Below are positions 30,208-63,560 of a stretch of 64,000 bases of DNA, in pieces. A model generated the notes under the pieces. That model was not told where the DNA came from. It ran no database searches and worked only from the letters and a program-made list of their open reading frames with translations. The translations under genes were made by a program, and so were the position numbers. Source of the stretch: Octopus vulgaris (taxonomy: Eukaryota). Where the stretch lies: assembly GCA_951406725.2 (NCBI GenBank), contig OX597815.1, positions 52,824,001 through 52,888,000 on the forward strand, written 5' to 3'. How positions within the stretch are numbered: the stretch's first letter is position 1; each line of letters opens with the position of its first letter.

Positions 30208-30520
30208 GAGGGCGTATGGCGTAATGGTTAAAGTATTCAGCTCACGACCGTAAGGTCATGAGTTCAATTCCCCGCGACTCGTTGTATCCTTAACCAGGAC
30301 AATGTATTTCACGTTACTCCAGTCCACTCAGCCGGCAAAGATTTGTAGTACCTGTATTTCAAAAGGCCTGCCACGTCACATTGTGTCATGCTTTAATTAC
30401 TTGAGAACTACGTTTACTGTACACTTGTCTGTGGAGTGCTCAGGCACTTGCAAGTTAATTTCACGAGCAAGCTGTTCCGTTGATCGGATCAACTGGAACC
30501 CTCGTTTTTGTAACCGATGG
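30208..30520 (+). mobile_element. tRNA-derived SINE (family C)
   Basis: A box TGGCGTAATGG, B box GAGTTCAATTCC. 3' half shared with 60532-60890. Confidence 0.8.
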
Positions 30521-30523
30521 ATA

Positions 30524-31892: not shown

Positions 31893-31979
<87 letters not shown>

Positions 31980-32479
31980 CGGGAAGCTTTATGAAAATAA
32001 ACAAAAGTTCTCCAAACACATGCAATATATACATAAACGGTCATGATATTTAAAGTAAATGGATCTTTGTCTGTTTCGACGAAGAGCATTCCAGTTTTTC
32101 GATCAACGGAACTACCAAAACATTGAATTCTAATGTAAATTCTTGAATGTTTCACAGACAAGCTTAAAATAAGCCTCAGTCACAATCTGATACTGTTTGA
32201 CAAGAGAATTTCTTGCCTACTGGGCCATGAATGCGTTAATACACATACATACAACCATAATTATAGAAAAAGGACACACATTACACAGACATACGCGCAA
32301 ACAGACATATTCTTAAACACTGCTTCCAACACATTTGCACACACATACATGTGCGCACGCACGCACACACAAACATTCTTGCATTGAAACGTAAATAATC
32401 CTATTTGATAAAAAATAGTTCTGAATATTTGTCTGAAATGAAACAAATCTTTTAGAAATACTTTCTATCATCCGATCTA

Positions 32480-39023: not shown

Positions 39024-40313
39024 CGAGGGGCGTTCAATAAGTAATGCCCCTGACCCACTTCCCATACCAGTAGAGCAACGGAACTTGGCACAGTTATTGG
39101 TCTTTTTCTACATAGGAACCACTCAGAGTTACGCATTTCTCCCATCGTTTGATCCAGCTCTGGAGACCGTTTTTGTAAAAGACCCCAGCTTGGTCCTCCA
39201 TCCACGACGTGACTTTAGAAATCAAGGCTGCATCATCTGGGAAATGCTTTCCTTTCAAAAACAACTTCATGGCTGGGAAGAGGTGAAAATCAGAGGGTGC
39301 AAGGACAGGAGAGTAGGGGGTGGGGGAGGAGTTCATAGCCGCACGCCTGTGCTTCTGATCTGGTGACACGCGAGTTGTGGACCGGAGCGTTGTCCTGCAG
39401 GAGGAGGATGCCTTCGCTGATCTTGCCCCGCCTCTTGATTTTGATAGCTTCTCTTAATTTTCTCAAAAGTGAAGCCTAATAGGGTCCTGTAATTGTGGTA
39501 CCCTTTGCAGGAAATCTGTCATCACTACTCCGTCCTGGTCCCAGGAGACTGTGAGCATGACCTTGCCAGCAGAGGGCTGCACCCTTGCCTTCTTTGGGTG
39601 AGGTGAGTCACGGTGCTTCCACTGCATTGACTGGGCTTTGGTCTCTGGATCATAGTGATGGACCCAGGTTTCATCCTGTGTAATCAGTCTTTTGAAAAAG
39701 TTTGACTCATCTTCTTGGTACGTCTCCAAATTCATCCTCGAGCACTCGACGCGTTCTTGCTTCTGGAAAGGTGTGAGCAACCTGGGAATCCATCTGGCAG
39801 ACACCTTTTGCATATGCAAATGGTCATGAATGATAGTTTCCACTGACCCGGTACTAATCTTGACCTCATGGGCTATTTGGCGAATAGTTATGCGTCGATC
39901 TTCCAAAATGGCAGCCTCAACTTGACGGACAGATGCCTCATCAATGGCAGAAGGGGGTCGACCAGATCTGGGAGCTGTTTCCACAGAGTTCCGACCATGT
40001 TTGAATTCACGATGCCAGCGTTTTACAAGGTCATATGATGGGGCATCATCACCATAAGTTATTTTCATTTCATCAAAAGTCTCCCGTGGTGTGCGTCCTT
40101 TCAAATACAAAAATCGGATCACTGCTCGACACTCAACAGGCTCCATTTCACACTTGACTCAGTTCAAACACCTGTAAATCAGAAACCATAATTAGTTCAG
40201 AGCTGTAATTTGCCACCTAATCTATAGAGATATAAGTAATTGCACATGCAACATTTCAACTAGATCAAACACCTGGAAGTGGGTCAGAGGCATTACTTAT
40301 TTATCGTCCCTCG
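39024..40313 (-). mobile_element. Full-length mariner (DD34D) DNA transposon
   Basis: ~39 bp TIRs (CGAGGG.CG.T.AATAAGTAATGCC.CTGACCCACTTCC) and TA duplications at 39022 and 40314. Confidence 0.95.
39094..40146 (-). pseudogene. Mariner transposase (2 frameshifts, 1 stop)
   Basis: HTH, RSGRP, WIPRLL, ITQDETW, LQDNA, YSPVLAPSDFHLF; lesions near 39505, 39478 and 39320. Confidence 0.93.
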
Positions 40314-48801: not shown

Positions 48802-51800
48802 TCACAATAAAATCGAAAAAATCGGATGATGGGACAGACCGGAAGACATTACGGATGGAGTGGGGGGGGGGGGGGGGTAACTCGGACCCCACGTGCCCCG
48901 CCTCGCCACTGATACCTTGGTTTCATTCTGTCTCACATTTATGTGGTACCATTCATACGCAACATCTGTGCTACATTCTTCCGTCGTTTTTCGAACTTTC
49001 TCAGTCAGGCATTTTCTCTCCAGCCCTCTTTTCTTTTTCAGGTGGAAGATGGAGTAATTCATCAATCCAGGGCTAGAGATAAAATTGCCTGACTCTATAC
49101 CTTTCAGCCTCGTCTTCCAAATCACCTCTCTCGCAATTGCAACTACAACGAGAAAACAATTCTTACCTTCTTTCGAGAGAAAATCCGGTGGGTCAATTTT
49201 TACAATAGACTCAGTCGACAGCTGTACTCTTCGTGTGTTTGACAACAGTTGTTCGGCATAAACCCACATCTCTGACACCTCCGAACATTGAGCAATAGCA
49301 TGCGGGACGGTTTCCCTATCCCGCTCGCATCTTGGATATGTCGGATTGCCTCGGCCACCATGCCTTGTGAGTTTGTCCCGAACAAGTAGAGCTCCTCTGT
49401 AACATTGCCATGCCAGAAACTTCTGAAAGTTGTCCAGGGTCTTCGGCCCGCATGTACGTCGGAACAGACTGGCCAGCTGATTATCATCGAGACCTAGGGT
49501 CTCCCCTAAAGTATCGTCACATTCCGCCTCTACCAGCCCTCTATAAAAGAATGTGGTGGAACCCCCACCGCAGGCGTTGCCCGAGCGACGGAATAGCAGG
49601 AGAGCCTTGCGACACTCCGTAAACCATGTGCCCAGTTTTGATCTTCGATTCAACTAGGTTTCCCATCCACCGAAACTACTGAACTTGGGAAACATCAGTT
49701 TTGCCAGCAGAAACCACACCCGTTCACCATCCAGGTAGAGCCACAGATGCCTCAACCTCAGCGCATGTCTCCGCATCAACAGCCAAGGCAGCCCTAGCCC
49801 ACCCTTTAACGGTTTTTTGACAGCAAGTAGAGCGTTTCACAAGCGGTTTCGAGCTCCTCCACAAAAAGTGAAAGAGCTGTCTTTCCAGGTTGATCAACCA
49901 CGAATCAGGGCAAGGAACGACGGATAGGCGGTAGGTGATGACCAATGCGATGAACACATTGGCTACATCCGCCCTTCCTTTCAGGGATAGCCACCGCCAA
50001 GACCAGGTGTTGACTACTGGAGCCACCCTGCTCGATACCTCGGCCCAGTTCTTCTCTATTTGGAGGTCTGGTCCAAACCAAACCCCTAGCAACTTAATCG
50101 GACCCTCCGTCCAACGTCTCACGACACTGTCAGGAGGCATCGACTTGCCTCTTCAGGTGCCGAGCTGCAAGCCGACTGACTTTTCATGATTAACTTTTGC
50201 TCCTGCCACCGTCTCGTAAACCTCTATGGCCTTGCCTACCCTCTGTAGGTGATCCATTTCGGTTACGATGATGGTGATGTCATCCGCGTAAGCTGACACC
50301 GGTTTTCCACAACCTGGCTGTCTCGGGATGCCGCTCAATTTTCGCAGTAATGGCTCAAGAGCCATCACGTACAAAAGCGGGGAGAGCGGACACCCTTGAC
50401 GAACCGAGCGTTTGATGTTGAACGGCTTCGATAAGAAGTCGTTCACCCGAACTACCGAGTCGATGTTGTCGTAAATCTGAATGATCCACCTGAGGAAACC
50501 AAGACCCAGGCCGAACTGTGCCAGAACGGACACCAGGTAGCGATAGTCAACCCTATCAAAAGCCTTAGATTGGTCTAAATGGACCAGTGCCCCACCCTTG
50601 CCAGAATCACTATTAAACCCCTCTAAAGTGTACCGCATAAGATGGACATTATCCTGAATGGTTCTGCTGGGAACGGCACATGTCTGTTCCTCCCCGATCA
50701 GACCATCCGCGACACGCGCCAATCTTTTCGACAACACTTTGGCCAAAATCTTCAACTCTGTGTTTAGCAGAGTGATGGGCCGAAAATTATCAATACAATC
50801 CCCCTTGTCCAGGTCCTTTCTGACAAGCGTCACTACTCCCCGGCGCACAGATCTGGGAATAAACCCGTTCAGCTGCCAGTTCGCGTACACCTCCGCCAGT
50901 AGGTGCCCGAACAAGTCTGGCATACTCTTATATAACTCATAGGGTAGTCTTACCTGCGCCTTACCTGCGCCGCAACCCGCCATAGCCTCAGCCACCTCCT
51001 CAGGCATGATCGGCCCTTCAAAGCTCTCCCGCGTCTCGCCCCGATAGGCGCGGCAGCCCGTCGAGGAGGTCCGTAAAGTCCCTCCTACTATCTGTTCCAC
51101 CGCCCCACCGAAAAGCTGAGCGAAGTGCTCCTGAAAAGCCTCACACATCTTCTCGGGTTCGTCTATCAACTTACCTTGTTGGTTCGTCAAAGATCGAATT
51201 GTGACATCATTACCACGTTGAGCATCCACCACTCGGGCCCATCCTGCAGCGTTGATTCCCTCACAACCCACTACGCGGATCCTAGCCCTGACAATGCAGC
51301 CCATGTGTTTGGCCTCGAGGTGCTGGTTTAACGCCAGTCTCTTGGCCGTCACCTGAGCCGTAGAGCCAGTTTTCATGGCTTTCTAAGTCCTTAACTAGAG
51401 TTGATCCCCTCCTAGCCTCTCTAGCCACTAATCCTATGCTATATCTAATAAACTCGAATTTTATGGCTCGCTTGAGAGCATACCACCATTTATTATTAAT
51501 GATGGCATCAGATAGCTCCCTCTGAATCAAAGTCCTAATCCGGTCTCTGTACTCCTTAATCGCCAAAAGAGACGTATTAAGTTTCCAAGCTTACAGGTGA
51601 CCATTTTATGGTCACTGTAGCTGACCGGGTAAAACTGTGGACACTTAGCTATTTCTCTATCTGTTTTTCTAATTAGTATTCTATCTATGTAAGACCTGGA
51701 AGATCCGTCGCTATTTGACCATGTCCACAATGGAGCGTTCGGAAAATCCAACCTATAAGGATCTGCTAGCTCAAAGCGTCTTAGCAGTTCCAGGAAGCCA

Positions 51801-52291
51801 GGGTTACCCTTTCTATCTGTACACGAGCCAACATAATCTACTCTCGCTCGTAAATTGTGTTGTAGTCTCCTAGCACAACTAATGAATGTGAAGTATTAAG
51901 AAACTTCTCTAGCTCTCGAAAATACTCACTTTGCCCAGATGATGATGAGGGTGCATAAATTGCAACCAGTCTGATAACTTTACCGTTTCTGAACGTCAAA
52001 TCCATGACGACCAGCCTACCTTCTGGATCTGAAAAAATTAATTGTTTCTCAAAAACCCGGTTTCTTTTTAATAGGACCAACACTCCACTCCTGCTGGTAG
52101 GACTGCCTGGAGAGAAAAAAACTCTCGTAGCTTTTCAACAGCGGGAGCAGATCTCTTGGCTCCTCTAACCGGGTTTCTGTAGCAACAATAACATCCAAAT
52201 TCCGCGACCTGATATCATTAAGGAAGCGTCCTTGCTTCCAGCTTGATCTCAGGTCACACACATTTATACAACCGACATAAATGCTAGCCAT
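48802..52291 (-). pseudogene. Tx1 ORF2 (AP endonuclease + RT + C-terminal zinc motif), disrupted
   Basis: CINV, ETR, AIYAP, LGDYN, SYIDRI, SDH; FRPITLLN, LDQSKAFDRV, SVRQGCPLSPLLY, AYADD, LLGVWF; degenerate C..C..E...H...C. Confidence 0.93.
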
Positions 52292-52304
52292 AACTTACGT
52301 CATA

Positions 52305-53361
52305 TCAGTGGTTCGGCTCATCTTCGTCTTTTTCTTTTTTATCTTTTTCCCGGGCCCGTGGCGGATTTTGACACAGCCCCTCGTATATGTATGGTGAGAT
52401 ACCCATCCTTAGAGGGCCTACGTCGTGATAAAATTCGGACTTTATCCGTCCGTAATCCTTCCGGCCTATTCTATATATTACAAAGTCTTTTGATGTGGTT
52501 TTGTCCACTTTTTAACCGTTGACATTGCTGCCAACCGATTCATGAGTCTATTATTAGATGCCCTAATGACCATAAACGTATTGACACACTTCTGCTTCCT
52601 TTTCAGGTTCAATTTGTGAGGGGTGGTCTCTGTTTTTTGCTTTTCCTCATTTTCTTGGAAATCGTTGACCACCCCTCCTCTTTTTCATTTTCTTCGCATT
52701 TTTCCTTCTCTGGTGTTTCTTTGGTCTTGATGCTTCTTTGGGTGATGTTTCTGGTGATTCATTCGGTGTTGTCTCTGGCGATTCATTCGGTGTTGACTCT
52801 GATGATTCTTTTGTTTCTGGTGGTGATGTTTCTTGAGGTTTTTCCTTTGGCTGGCATTCTGCTCTTATATGCCCCTTCATGCCACAGCTGAAGCATCTTG
52901 GCTTCTTGCCCTCCACAAAGACTATTAGTTTTTCTTCTTCGCTGATTCTTATGACCTCTGGAATTTCTTCCAGGGTTTGAACTTCGGCTTGTATAGCCAT
53001 TGTTAGGCATTGGCCCTTCCAGTGCTCCTCTTCCTCTACCGAAGCCTGGAGAATATTTATCTTTTCGTCTAATACCAACGTTATACGTCTTGTAAATGAT
53101 TCTCCTTTTGTTAACTACCTCGGTTGTGTTCTCGTTCGATATTACTATGACTTCCGTGCCTTCTTTCTTCAAGTTTGACATATATTTTTCCAGGTTACTC
53201 TTTTCGATATTTAGCTTTCTCTCTTTCTTCCCTGCCACTTCAGCAAATTTCTTCGTTGGGGCTGCATTCGTTTTAGGCGATACCGTCGGTGAGTTTTCTT
53301 CACCTGACACAGGTGAGTATGGAATGGGAGTTTCCATTTCCACAAAGTTGGCTTTCAACAA
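52305..53361 (-). pseudogene. Tx1 ORF1 (gag-like, CCHC knuckle), disrupted
   Basis: VFVEGKKPRCFSCGMKGHIRAEC. Frameshifts and an apparent internal deletion relative to element B. Confidence 0.8.
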
Positions 53362-53959
53362 GCAAAAAGTTTTGGCTTAAACAATCCTTTCACGAAAATT
53401 CGTTTAAACAAGCTTTTCCCCAAAATTGGCTAAACAAGCCTTTCGCACAAGTTTGCTTTACAACTACACAATAATTCCCCCCGCAGGGAGGAATTTCAAC
53501 ACGTAGCTTTCAAACGAAAGCAAATAACAAGTTTTTCACAACAAAATTTACAGTAACAACAACAAATCAACGTACCGATAGCAGAATTTCAAACAACAGA
53601 GTAGAAGCGGCTGTTCGAGACAACAGACATTACATACAGCCAAACTTCATATAGATACTTAATGCTAGCTAATTAGCAGATAATCTAATGTAAAAGCTGT
53701 GGTAAATGGTATGTGCACAGCTCCATCTGGACTATTCCATTTCTGCACATTAATATTATTTTTAATTTATTCCCATTCATGTGAAACCACTTATTCAAGT
53801 TCAAGTCATTGATGCAATTTTATACCAATTGCTATTTTTACTTTTAATTGTTATGTTACGATTTAATTATTATATTATACATTAGTTTGATTTTAATTAT
53901 TACTTACTACATATAATTCAATTGTTATTATTATCTCTAATTTTTATTGTTAAAGTGAA

Positions 53960-59540: not shown

Positions 59541-60431
59541 ACAGTGACAACTGAGGATATAGAATCATCAACAGGTTATAAAGCATCAATGATCTTGTCA
59601 CTTTTGTTGGGCTGCTCTGACGCCGCAGGAACATATAGGTATAAGTTGTTTCTTATTGGTAAAAGTTTATACCTATAAACGACGCATTATCAATTAGAAA
59701 CTACGATAAATTATAGTTAGACGTTCTTTTGTAGTATCTAAATATCTTTGTCTTCCAATGTATAGCAGTAAAATACATAATTACTCACCGAACACTCTAA
59801 CACGCTAACACACGCAAACACACCACACACACGCGCGCGCAAACACACCACACACACACACGCGCACACACCACACACACACACGCACACACATACAGCA
59901 TGCACGCACATACACACACATACACTCACACAGTTATGGTATATTCTGTAAAGAACGTTGTAGAGTTCGATATATAGCTCGTCCACCTTCAGATTTACCC
60001 TGTGCCAACTAGTAGTAGTATTATACGTACTTCCACGTTTGTGTTTGGGCATCTGTCTCATTAGAGATAGCTGCTATGCAATGAAATATATCATATATAT
60101 ATATATAGCTATAATGTATATTTATATATATATTTATATACCAACCAGAAACAGCGGTTTGGGAATCTGGTAAAGAGAAGCACTGGGCAGATATAGTGTT
60201 TTTATACCTTTTACCTTCAGAAAGAATCGTTTCTCCACGGGAAGTGCTGCTGTGAATTTGTCTTTAGAAGTTGAAATACATACCAAACACATTTTAACGA
60301 AATTGAAGTTTGTTTATTCCTAATCTTTGCTGGGCGCCGATGGTGTTATTATATATATATTCTTTCTGTAATTTCAACTAGAGCTGCGGCCACACACACA
60401 CACGTATATATGCAACATATATATATATGCA

Positions 60432-60519
<88 letters not shown>

Positions 60520-60531
60520 GTGTGTGTGTGT

Positions 60532-60887
60532 GGAGGCGCAATGGCCCAGTGGTTAGGGCAGCGGACTCGCGGTCATAGGATCGCGGTTTCGATTCCCAGA
60601 CCGGGCGTCGTGAGTGTTTATTGAGCGAAAACACCTAAAAGCTCCACGAGGCTCCGGCAGGGGATGGTGGTGATCCCTGCTGTACTCTTTCACCACAACT
60701 TTCTCTCACTCTTACTTCCTGTTTCTGTTGTACCTGTATTTCAAGGGGCCTATCCCCGAGAACTACGTTAAGGGTGCACGTGTCTGTGGAGTGCTCAGCC
60801 ACTTACACGTTAATTTCACGAGCAGGCTGTTCCGTTGATTCGGATCAACCGGAACCCTCATCGTCGTAACCGACGGAGTGCTTCCAT

Positions 60888-60890
<3 letters not shown>
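60532..60890 (+). mobile_element. Well-preserved tRNA-derived SINE (family D)
   Basis: A box TGGCCCAGTGG, B box GGTTTCGATTCC. Tail shared with 30340-30520. Confidence 0.88.
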
Positions 60891-60931
<41 letters not shown>

Positions 60932-61105
60932 ATAAATATTAGGGAATAAATCCAAATTTACAGGGAAAAAATCAGATTTAAGATTAAATCCAATTTTATA
61001 GTAAAATATTATATAATATTATTAGAGACAAAACCACTATTTTGCAAAACAAACAAGGAAAGACTTAATCAATACATAAAATTTTAATAAAAAGTCAAAA
61101 AAACC

Positions 61106-61151
61106 GCCACTACAATTGTTTCTTGTCTTGATCGACAATCTTCAGGTGGGC
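61106..61151 (-). ncRNA. Intact minimal HHR (stem III CAATTG)
   Basis: Reverse complement of 61542-61587. Confidence 0.88.
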
Positions 61152-61541
61152 TTCCAATCCCTGTGTAGAATTTACATCTCAAATAAAGCCGTCCATAACG
61201 ATAAGATGTGACCAACATATAAAAAAGCTTAGCCAGGGTTCACGGGTAGACAGACACCTTGCGAAACGAATATTCCTTTCTTTTTCTTTTTTTTTAATTA
61301 ATTCATTTGATACGTTTAAATTCTTTTGGTAAGTTTACTTTATATAAACATATTAAGAATTCCGTTTAATGTCTCTCAATGATGTATACAGGGTATATAT
61401 ATTTATGTGGCTTTAACTAAACTTCATTTAAAAAGCCTGCCGATTAGTGCGCACGCCTTCCATTCTGTACGGATAGCAACTCGATCCCTTATCGTTATGG
61501 ACGGCTTTATTTGAGATGTAAATTCTACACAGGGATTGGAA

Positions 61542-61587
61542 GCCCACCTGAAGATTGTCGATCAAGACAAGAAACAATTGTAGTGGC
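61542..61587 (+). ncRNA. Intact minimal HHR (stem III CAATTG)
   Basis: CCAC-CTGAAGA-TTGTC-GATCAA-GACAA-GAAA-CAATTG-TA^-GTGG. Confidence 0.9.
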
Positions 61588-61671
61588 GGTTTTTTTGACT
61601 TTTTATTAAAATTTTATGTATTGATTAAGTCTTTCCTTGTTTGTTTTGCAAAATAGTGGTTTTGTCTCTAA

Positions 61672-61725
<54 letters not shown>

Positions 61726-61803
61726 GGGTTTAGCTCACTTCTGATCTAAACGAATAACACTTACGCTGAGTAAGTGTTATATTTGGTCGACCATTAGGTT
61801 CCA

Positions 61804-61867
61804 AGAATCCTAACACGGATCCCTAGATCTAGCTAAAGCTAGATCTAGGGATCCGTGTTAGGATTCT
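61804..61867. repeat. Perfect 31 bp-arm palindrome (2 nt spacer)
   Basis: AGAATCCTAACACGGATCCCTAGATCTAGCT-AA-AGCTAGATCTAGGGATCCGTGTTAGGATTCT. Confidence 0.95.
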
Positions 61868-61978
61868 GTTATACCATGCATATATTATATTAGAGGAAAA
61901 ATCAAACTTGAGATACTCGTTCTGACTTGATTCTGGTTTTTCTTCTAATATTTATATATATATATACATATATATATA

Positions 61979-62500
61979 TAACGGGAAGGTTTACGAAAAT
62001 AAACAAAAGACGAAGACAGGTGGAGTACAAACAAACAAATGTATTAGTATGGCGCTCAGGAATAGAAATAGAACAAGTTTTTTACGTTTCGAGCCTACGC
62101 TCTTCGACAGAAAGATACACAGAAAAAAAACAAGGAGAGAAAAAAATGCGTGTAGGGGCTAACGATCTATCATGGCGTTCTGACTTCAGGCAGAGTTCAG
62201 AGGTCAGACGTTAGACGCTAGAGGGACAGTAGAGGAGATAACAGGGTCAAGTGACTTCCAAAACGAAGGTGGCCCCAACACGAAGATGCGTGTGTGTATA
62301 AGAGAGTATGTATGTGCGTGTGAAAGAGGGCTGGTGGTCTGGACGTGTGTATGTATGTATGTATGTGTGAGTGTGGAGATATGGGGATGGGTGTGTGGGT
62401 GGTGTGTTGTGATGTGATGTGTAATATTGTATGGTGTAGTGTAGTGTGGTGTGATGTTGTGGGGAAGTGGGGGGGCGAGAGTGGGGAAAGCCATGTGGGG
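61979..62500 (-). mobile_element. Neptune-type PLE 3' end/pLTR with variant HHR, in (TA)n
   Basis: HHR-like TTT-CTGTCGA-A-GAGC-GTAG-GCTC-GAAA-CG-TA-AAA at 62078-62115. Shares CGCTCAGGAA and layout with 5828-6000. The same terminus occurs at ~31978. Confidence 0.6.
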
Positions 62501-62579: not shown

Positions 62580-63560
62580 TTTATTTTTATTTTATCTTAT
62601 CTAGTTTCAGCTCACGAGCTGCGGCCATGCTGGGGCACCGCCATTTGGTGTTGCTACATGATTTTACTTCACGAATGCTTTTTAGCAACTGCCATTTGGT
62701 GCATGAGAGAGTTCGATGCAGCTGCCCTCATCTGCACCTCCTGCCGTAAAGTTGGTTCATCCGGGACACCTGACAGGAAGAGATCCAGTTCTACTTTAAA
62801 GACATCCGCATCCACCGCAGGTCCCTCAGGTTCTTCGGGAGGATATTGAAGAGCTGTGGGCCTCTGAAGCCCAGGCTATCACAGTATCTTGTCCTACATC
62901 TTGATGGCAAATTTGGAGTCCTTGGCACCACGCAGTGGCGCCCAGTTCTGGCATTTGTGTAACTCTCGATGCCAAAGTTTGGGACAAGTCCTTCCAGGAT
63001 CTTCCAGATGTATATTATGGCATATCTTTCTCGCCTACGCTCCAAGGAATAGAGTTTTAATCTCTTGAGTCTTTCCCAGTAGCTTACATGCTGCACAGAG
63101 GCTATCTTCTTCGTGTAGCTTCGTTGGATCGCCTCAAATTCTGTGATCAACTTGACACTGGATGGTGACCATAGCTGAGAGCAATATTCAAAGTGGCTTA
63201 GGACAAGTGTCCTCCAGAGGACCATCATGATTTCTTGTTCTCTTGCTCTAAAGGTTCTAAGAATCCATCCGGCCAGCCGTCTACATTTCATTGCCAATTT
63301 AGCAACATGTACATGAAAGGTTGCGTCATCACTCATGTAAATACCCAGGTCACGCACTGATTGTGCCTCTGAGATTGCAATCCCTCCGGGTCCAGTGTAT
63401 TCATTGGGTATTGCATTTAGTTTTGCATGCTGATAGCATAAAGCTTGAAACTTTTCAGCATTGAACTGCATGCTATTCTTTTCAGCCCACTTGTATATTT
63501 TGTCCAGCTCACATTGTCTTCAGGGTTCTGTATTGCCTGTGAAACTTTTGTATCATCTAC
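62580..63560 (-). mobile_element. 5'-truncated CR1-group LINE 3' end
   Basis: FYVDDTK, MQFNAEKFQ, RDLGI, LSHFEYCSQLWSP, EAIQRSYTKKI, YWERLKRLKLYSLERRRERY; tail GGCGGTGCCCCAGCATGGCCGCAGC..CTGAAACTAGATAAGATAAAATAAAA. Confidence 0.92.

Follow-up and report, generated by a model that had tools for sequence, protein, structure and literature searches.

Penelope-like elements (PLEs) have two start sites for reverse transcription, prefer AT-rich targets and use unprocessed RNA as their main substrate (PMC11167929), and their insertions include an inverted 5'-truncated copy with a one-sided tail (PMC8557442). The hammerhead ribozymes of PLEs consistently have a highly conserved G10.1–C11.1 pair and an unpaired base between positions 9 and 10.1; no cleavage was reported for single PLE hammerheads and weak cleavage for dimers (PMC4209133). 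Dual minimal hammerheads on opposite strands, 100–700 bp apart, were described in Schistosoma mansoni (PMC4209133), and paired opposite-strand hammerheads in a PLE of Cotesia (wasp) bracovirus (PMC4209133, supplement). The hammerhead of an anole PLE required protein and was dispensable for insertion (PMC11167929). In Octopus vulgaris, PLEs reach 6.83% coverage in 190 families (PMC13282606).

An inverted pair of hammerheads was analysed in a stretch of 64 kb of Octopus vulgaris DNA (the window). The pair forms a unit of 757 bp, the features of which are listed in Table 1. A first-pass annotation had described two identical divergent hammerheads on an inverted repeat of about 196 bp with a spacer of about 282 bp, (TA)n at either end and no attached ORF, and all of these features were recovered: the two arms are 100% complementary over 196 nt and 282 nt apart, both ends run into TA tracts, and no reading frame of at least 90 codons extends into the unit. 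One type I hammerhead is present per arm; the two copies are divergent, pointing outward, and their cores lie 403 bp apart. The 83 extra repeat bases on the left, in which a 13 bp hairpin is predicted (60968–60997), are missing from the right side. The make-up of the arm is mixed, the outer part (about 150 bp) being a very high-copy repeat and the inner part (about 47 bp) low-copy DNA. The annotation had overlooked that the spacer and the inner arms are low-copy, host-like DNA. No second copy of the arm, tail or spacer was found elsewhere in the window.

Table 1. Features of the inverted hammerhead unit and its flanks (window coordinates).
Feature	Position	Strand	Remarks
(TA)19 tract, left target/flank	60891–60928		
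Repeat tail, 83 nt, left side only	60927–61009	-	As high-copy as the arm
Left arm, 196 nt	61010–61205	-	
pLTR-like high-copy part of left arm	61010–61158	-	From contig depth
Left type I hammerhead	61107–61149	-	Core from 61145; predicted cut after 61111
Element/host junction	61157–61158		2 letters common to the repeat family and to the low-copy DNA in its other context
Low-copy host-like segment, 332 nt	61159–61490		Inner 47 nt of left arm, 282 nt spacer and 3 shared letters
Inversion junction	61488–61490	+	Inferred 3-letter microhomology with 61203–61205
Right arm	61488–61683	+	Host-like 61488–61534, pLTR-like 61535–61683; no tail
Right type I hammerhead	61544–61586	+	Predicted cut after 61582
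Parts of right hammerhead	Helix I 61544–61547/61583–61586, core 61548–61554, helix II 61555–61570, GAAA 61571–61574, helix III 61574–61581		
(TA)22 tract, right target/flank	61678–61721		

The octopus pair resembles the pairs of Schistosoma and Cotesia bracovirus in its type I motif, short helix I, palindromic helix III, opposite strands and lack of an ORF. It differs from the pairs as they are presented in PMC4209133 in that helix II closes with U–A instead of G10.1–C11.1, and in that low-copy, host-like DNA has been demonstrated between the copies and occupies part of each arm as well. The inverted 5'-truncated copy placed head to head, the tail at one end and the (TA)n target are shared with pLTR insertions of Penelope/Poseidon, Neptune, Nematis, Hydra and Naiad elements (PMC8557442, PMC11167929). 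The tail of 83 nt is longer than the 30–40 nt given in these sources, and no linked ORF places the octopus unit in a clade; Naiads are described there as having no canonical hammerheads, whereas the octopus repeat has one. With the solo pLTRs of Adineta vaga (PMC3846280) the unit has in common unrelated non-coding DNA framed by pLTRs, mobilization in trans and microhomology at the 5' junction. The Adineta vaga case, as set out in that source, shows target-site duplications and one empty allele, whereas in the octopus the target is (TA)n and the captured DNA includes 47 bp that are duplicated in inverted orientation. Non-LTR retrozymes (PMC7229834; 10.64898/2026.07.22.740005) are likewise short, non-coding, AT-rich, equipped with a type I hammerhead and related to pLTRs, and are described as head-to-tail tandem arrays; the octopus unit is only an inverted pair, and no tandem head-to-tail hammerhead units, the mark of a retrozyme, were found in the window. 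Published precedents thus exist for opposite-strand pairs, for one-sided tails and for host DNA framed by solo pLTRs (PMC4209133, PMC8557442, PMC3846280). A limited literature search found no paper on host DNA duplicated in both arms of such a pair. In L1 twin priming and 5' transduction, two primed copies of one RNA are joined at microhomology and host sequence is carried upstream. The pieces made by L1 twin priming do not overlap; the octopus copies begin near the same end and form a true inverted repeat.

Several other repeats surround the unit. A tRNA-headed SINE-like repeat (60533–60889; head assigned by eye) adjoins the (TA)19 tract on the left and has a partial second copy at 30344–30521 (87%). 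On the right, 61723–61945 lies between two TA runs and contains a 64 bp near-perfect palindrome (61804–61867) and a smaller one (61754–61780); at its right end it is similar to the termini of the hammerhead repeat, and its Rfam miRNA matches were sub-threshold only. A TA-abutting element on the minus strand (61981–62130) has an end in common with 31979–32007 (93% over 29 nt) and contains words reminiscent of a hammerhead (GAAAC followed by GTA) but no canonical CUGA half. Pfam was run on 12 window frames in all, including 11 of the 38 frames of at least 130 codons. The sole RVT_1 match among the 12 (E = 3e-30, frame 50153–51382) belongs to a broken LINE on the minus strand (48802–53376) with an adjoining zf-RVT match; this frame, 10 kb from the unit, looks like an unrelated LINE. 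A mariner transposase remnant (39463–40158) and a LINE-like C-terminal frame with no Pfam match (62791–63519) are both on the minus strand. The spacer was also considered as coding sequence and rejected, its 56-codon plus-strand frame from 61159 having neither a Pfam family nor a candidate homologue; the sole phmmer match of this frame (E = 1e-4), a sum of weak matches to Calx-beta repeats, was rejected as chance. A SECIS-like reading of 61495–61550 was discarded as well (fold z-score -0.52; stretch outside the repeat family).

Contigs from four of 24 sequencing runs (X1, X3, X6 and X15) were compared with the unit over 558 of its 757 bases (60930–61487). X1 and X3 are DNA-type; X3 and X15 bear the same organism label (C) and come from two studies. 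The comparison took in 76% of X1, and X1 may be the window's own sample. Shares of common words were not used for typing junctions, as X6 scores 0.67 without covering the spacer. Summed contig depth in X1 and X3, which is not equivalent to copy number, was 0.37–3.3 million for 60930–61157, 15–21 thousand in the bin 61158–61176 and 53–117 beyond 61176, with spacer values of 72.5 (X1) and 53.5 (X3). The drop in depth by four orders of magnitude at 61158–61176 in both runs shows that the repeat making up the tail and the outer 150 bp of the arm is very common, unlike the inner 47 bp and the spacer. The X6 contigs leave the low-copy segment uncovered.

The X1 contigs on the repeat are mostly 90–99% like the window, with 2150 of 13932 at 99% or above. 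Exits into (TA)n were seen in 37 X1 contigs at the end of the short arm (61010) and in 25 at 61021; the short end at 61010 is a usual end of the repeat family. Loose ends at 61021 and 61149 reveal other repeat bodies with the same tail, as well as subfamilies that diverge immediately upstream of helix I; in one of these the sequence begins at (TA)n some 20 nt upstream. Several repeat families may use one tail. Given the coverage and the number of families reported for PLEs in Octopus vulgaris, the repeat family may already be catalogued in an existing repeat library.

The low-copy segment was found in a second context, which is free of the ribozyme. An X3 contig (record 24, 1974 nt) matches 61159–61487 and continues into other sequence for 1571 letters on the left and 75 on the right; an X15 contig (record 16, 1380 nt) matches 61157–61487 and continues for 902 letters leftward and 148 rightward. 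At three mismatches, no match was found in the window for the 30 X15 letters that adjoin the segment. Across the segment, the X1, X3 and X15 contigs show no substitution and one gap; each contig is one letter shorter over the spacer, the site probably being the T run at 61270–61311. The ratio of repeat depth to segment depth is about 10 in X15 and about 10,000 in X1 and X3. X15 behaves like RNA, although this label is a guess, and the low ratio indicates that the segment is probably transcribed in its source.

The spacer contig of X1 (record 8) extends from 61176 to 3 letters past 61487. Contig breaks were simulated with an assumed word length of 31 letters: the window form alone gave a contig of 61176–61517, the other context alone gave no break, and both forms together, with 3 shared letters, gave 61176–61490. 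X1 also has extra depth over 61177–61205 (117 and 96 versus 72.5). The contig extent of 61176–61490 matches the two-form simulation and, together with the extra depth, indicates indirectly that X1 holds the inverted junction and the second form; the contig end 3 letters past 61487 points to a 3-letter microhomology at 61488–61490. The contig breaks therefore argue against an assembly artefact. An artefact made from a fold-back read would be in keeping with the perfect identity of the arms, and none of the listed contigs spans the unit; we nevertheless regard it as extremely improbable, as a real junction predicts both the X1 breaks at 61176 and the extra depth, and as a fold-back would have mirrored the tail and the flanks as well, which differ. 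The two 196 bp arms are free of differences (upper 95% bound for divergence 1.5%), and the inverted form is absent from the X3 and X15 contigs, in agreement with the earlier proposal of a recent event.

Each arm contains, in order, CUGAAGA, a 5 bp helix II, GAAA, CAAUUG, UA (GUA cut site) and a 4 bp helix I, and both arms have the type I core (CUGANGA, GAAA, NUH, helices I and II). A strict hammerhead descriptor matched twice in the window, once in each arm, compared with one match in 20 simulated windows combined. Helix III is short and palindromic, ACAAUUGU being self-complementary, a feature that favours dimers. The helix II pair next to the core is U–A without a bulge, and neither G10.1–C11.1 nor the unpaired base is present. 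Such a change from G10.1–C11.1 would be expected to lower hammerhead activity. The term 'intact' in the first-pass annotation is accordingly accurate for the core letters and inaccurate for this pair of helix II. No Rfam hammerhead match was obtained at the gathering score in the whole window, and none was among the 40 matches up to E = 10 over 60400–62300. Folding z-scores of the ribozyme region were unremarkable (-0.27 to 0.70). The family variant 61117 T>C, which makes up 49% of the depth in X1, 45% in X3 and none in X6, leaves all eight pairs of the dimer helix III intact through G–U (pairing by hand). Contig loose ends at 61128–61129 alter N7 or loop II, and one of them also disrupts the core. 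The motif looks to be kept at the level of the family, the evidence from the loose ends being thin.

We consider it rather more probable than any other outcome, with considerable reservation, that the unit is a single recent insertion made by a Penelope-like RT/endonuclease acting in trans on an uncut host-plus-pLTR template. The repeat would have been truncated at a point 14 nt upstream of the core and joined to host sequence at the 2-letter microhomology of the element/host junction, either by a template jump in reverse transcription or by read-through of an earlier donor insertion. The TA run would then have been nicked and copying would have proceeded from the tail end (about 60930) for 560 nt to 61490. 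A second copy of 196 nt, begun at the other usual end of the family (61010) or formed by fold-back of the first copy, would have followed, and the two copies would have been joined head to head at the 3 shared letters.

The hammerhead in a high-copy terminal repeat, the inverted 5'-truncated copy, the one-sided tail and the (TA)n target are all features of insertions by PLEs (EN+), and the anatomy fits the Penelope-type inverted product, as had been suggested on first inspection. Judged by depth, the arms share minority letters of the family at 61014 (other letter 64% in X1 and 54% in X3) and 61092 (69% and 89%, respectively); these letters, together with the identical host junction, indicate that both arms derive from one template. 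As the host/element junction lies inside both arms, the chimera preceded the inversion. Both arms retain the cut site and at least 48 bases upstream of it, which indicates that the template was copied uncut. Against the proposed Penelope-like insertion count the tail length of 83 nt (published, 30–40 nt), the divergence of X3 and X15 at points 2 letters apart (61159 and 61157), the failure of an empty target site to appear and the lack of an RT or GIY-YIG ORF near the unit in the frames and Pfam scan of the window. Searches of metagenome contigs gave no match for an exact 32-mer and none for a degenerate pattern, and two motif words were not found in the text supplement of PMC8557442.

Capture by splicing would account for the junction differently: a minus-strand host exon with its end at 61159/61160 would have been spliced to an acceptor upstream of the ribozyme, and the hybrid RNA inserted in inverted form by the Penelope machinery. 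The 2-letter offset is relevant here, the match of the DNA-type X3 stopping at 61159 and that of the RNA-type X15 at 61157, with no substitution in about 330 nt; barring a variant in X3, a plain microhomology join leaves this offset unexplained, and an exon end would fit it. The RNA-like depth ratio of X15 and the probable transcription of the segment are also in favour, as is the intron end at helix I reported for Drosophila virilis Penelope in PMC4209133. In the sole family sequence observed upstream of 61158 (11 X1 contigs), however, the junction lacks an AG; the closest AG directly precedes helix I, and splicing there would drop 8 letters that the window keeps. Across the junction, X15 agrees with the element at 2 letters exactly and at a further 4 when shifted by 1 letter, as expected of a microhomology join, and on balance we judge splicing unlikely. 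In the 23-letter X1 loose end upstream of 61158, one frame stays open as far as the TGA in the core of the ribozyme (by hand), a weak hint that this stretch is the end of a parent ORF.

A rearrangement in place is more doubtful still. Here a truncated element would have inserted where the segment natively resides, and the second arm would have arisen by fold-back duplication, with adjacent DNA being lost. The two forms in X1 could then be two alleles of one locus, and the right-hand native neighbour could be located past the end of the window, which is 2.3 kb to the right. The native left neighbour was nevertheless not found in the 60.9 kb to the left, several events would be required, and the ends run into (TA)n at the usual ends of the family (37 contigs at 61010), unlike the native junction, where there is no TA run.

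Folding of the ribozyme was predicted with energies that ignore tertiary contacts. On these terms the hammerhead fold had a probability of 0.0007 in the monomer, and in the dimer an energy of -23.4 kcal/mol versus a minimum of -24.0 kcal/mol (gap 0.6 kcal/mol). In RNA of the full unit all 196 arm pairs were predicted to form (-373 kcal/mol). For emerging transcripts of four lengths, the arm pairs predicted were 53 of 53, 73 of 73, 95 of 95 and 113 of 113, and with RNA starts at four points inside the unit the probability of helix III did not exceed 0.016. As a consequence of the divergent orientation, the antisense arm is transcribed first in read-through RNA of either strand. The ribozyme at this locus is thus predicted to be locked in a 196 bp duplex in any read-through RNA, and the transcript product, if the unit is transcribed, would likely be double-stranded RNA. 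The long hairpin noted in the first-pass annotation therefore stands, while its mere competition with ribozyme folding does not, the antisense arm coming first and all arm pairs being predicted.

The same annotation had named the locus the best candidate for an active ribozyme. This was not upheld, in view of the low monomer probability, the U–A pair, the order of the arms and the uncut template. That an intact ribozyme is active at the locus, switched by the competing hairpin or by outward transcription from the spacer, would agree with the intact core letters and GUA site, with a CpG ratio of 1.26 in the segment (0.77 in the window) and with the dimer fold that two outward transcripts could form close to the energy minimum. 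We rate this as very improbable. The arm pairs are complete at all four transcript lengths, helix III is scarcely populated from the four inner starts, and U–A replaces G10.1–C11.1; published PLE hammerheads are inert as single copies and weak as dimers (PMC4209133), and the anole hammerhead needs protein and is not itself needed for insertion (PMC11167929). The absence of the inverted form from the X3 and X15 contigs gives no sign of conservation. The ribozyme of the family is plausible and likely works as a dimer or with the help of protein, yet this locus is a poor candidate for activity and, in its genomic context, a poor choice for testing it.

Read as a Penelope-like insertion, the unit is one more inverted insertion of the Penelope type, and its value is that of a clean mechanistic record. 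Copying of the ribozyme site in uncut form would be an in vivo parallel to the finding, made in vitro, that unprocessed RNA serves as the main substrate (PMC11167929). Were capture and inverted duplication of host sequence common, these elements would supply double-stranded RNA of host origin. A bolder view is that the Penelope machinery picks up fragments of host transcripts, perhaps through splicing, and rewrites them as perfect inverted repeats, that is, as transposon-made silencing alleles; we think this improbable. Were it true, each insertion would be a polymorphic hairpin that could yield host-directed small RNAs or edited duplexes.
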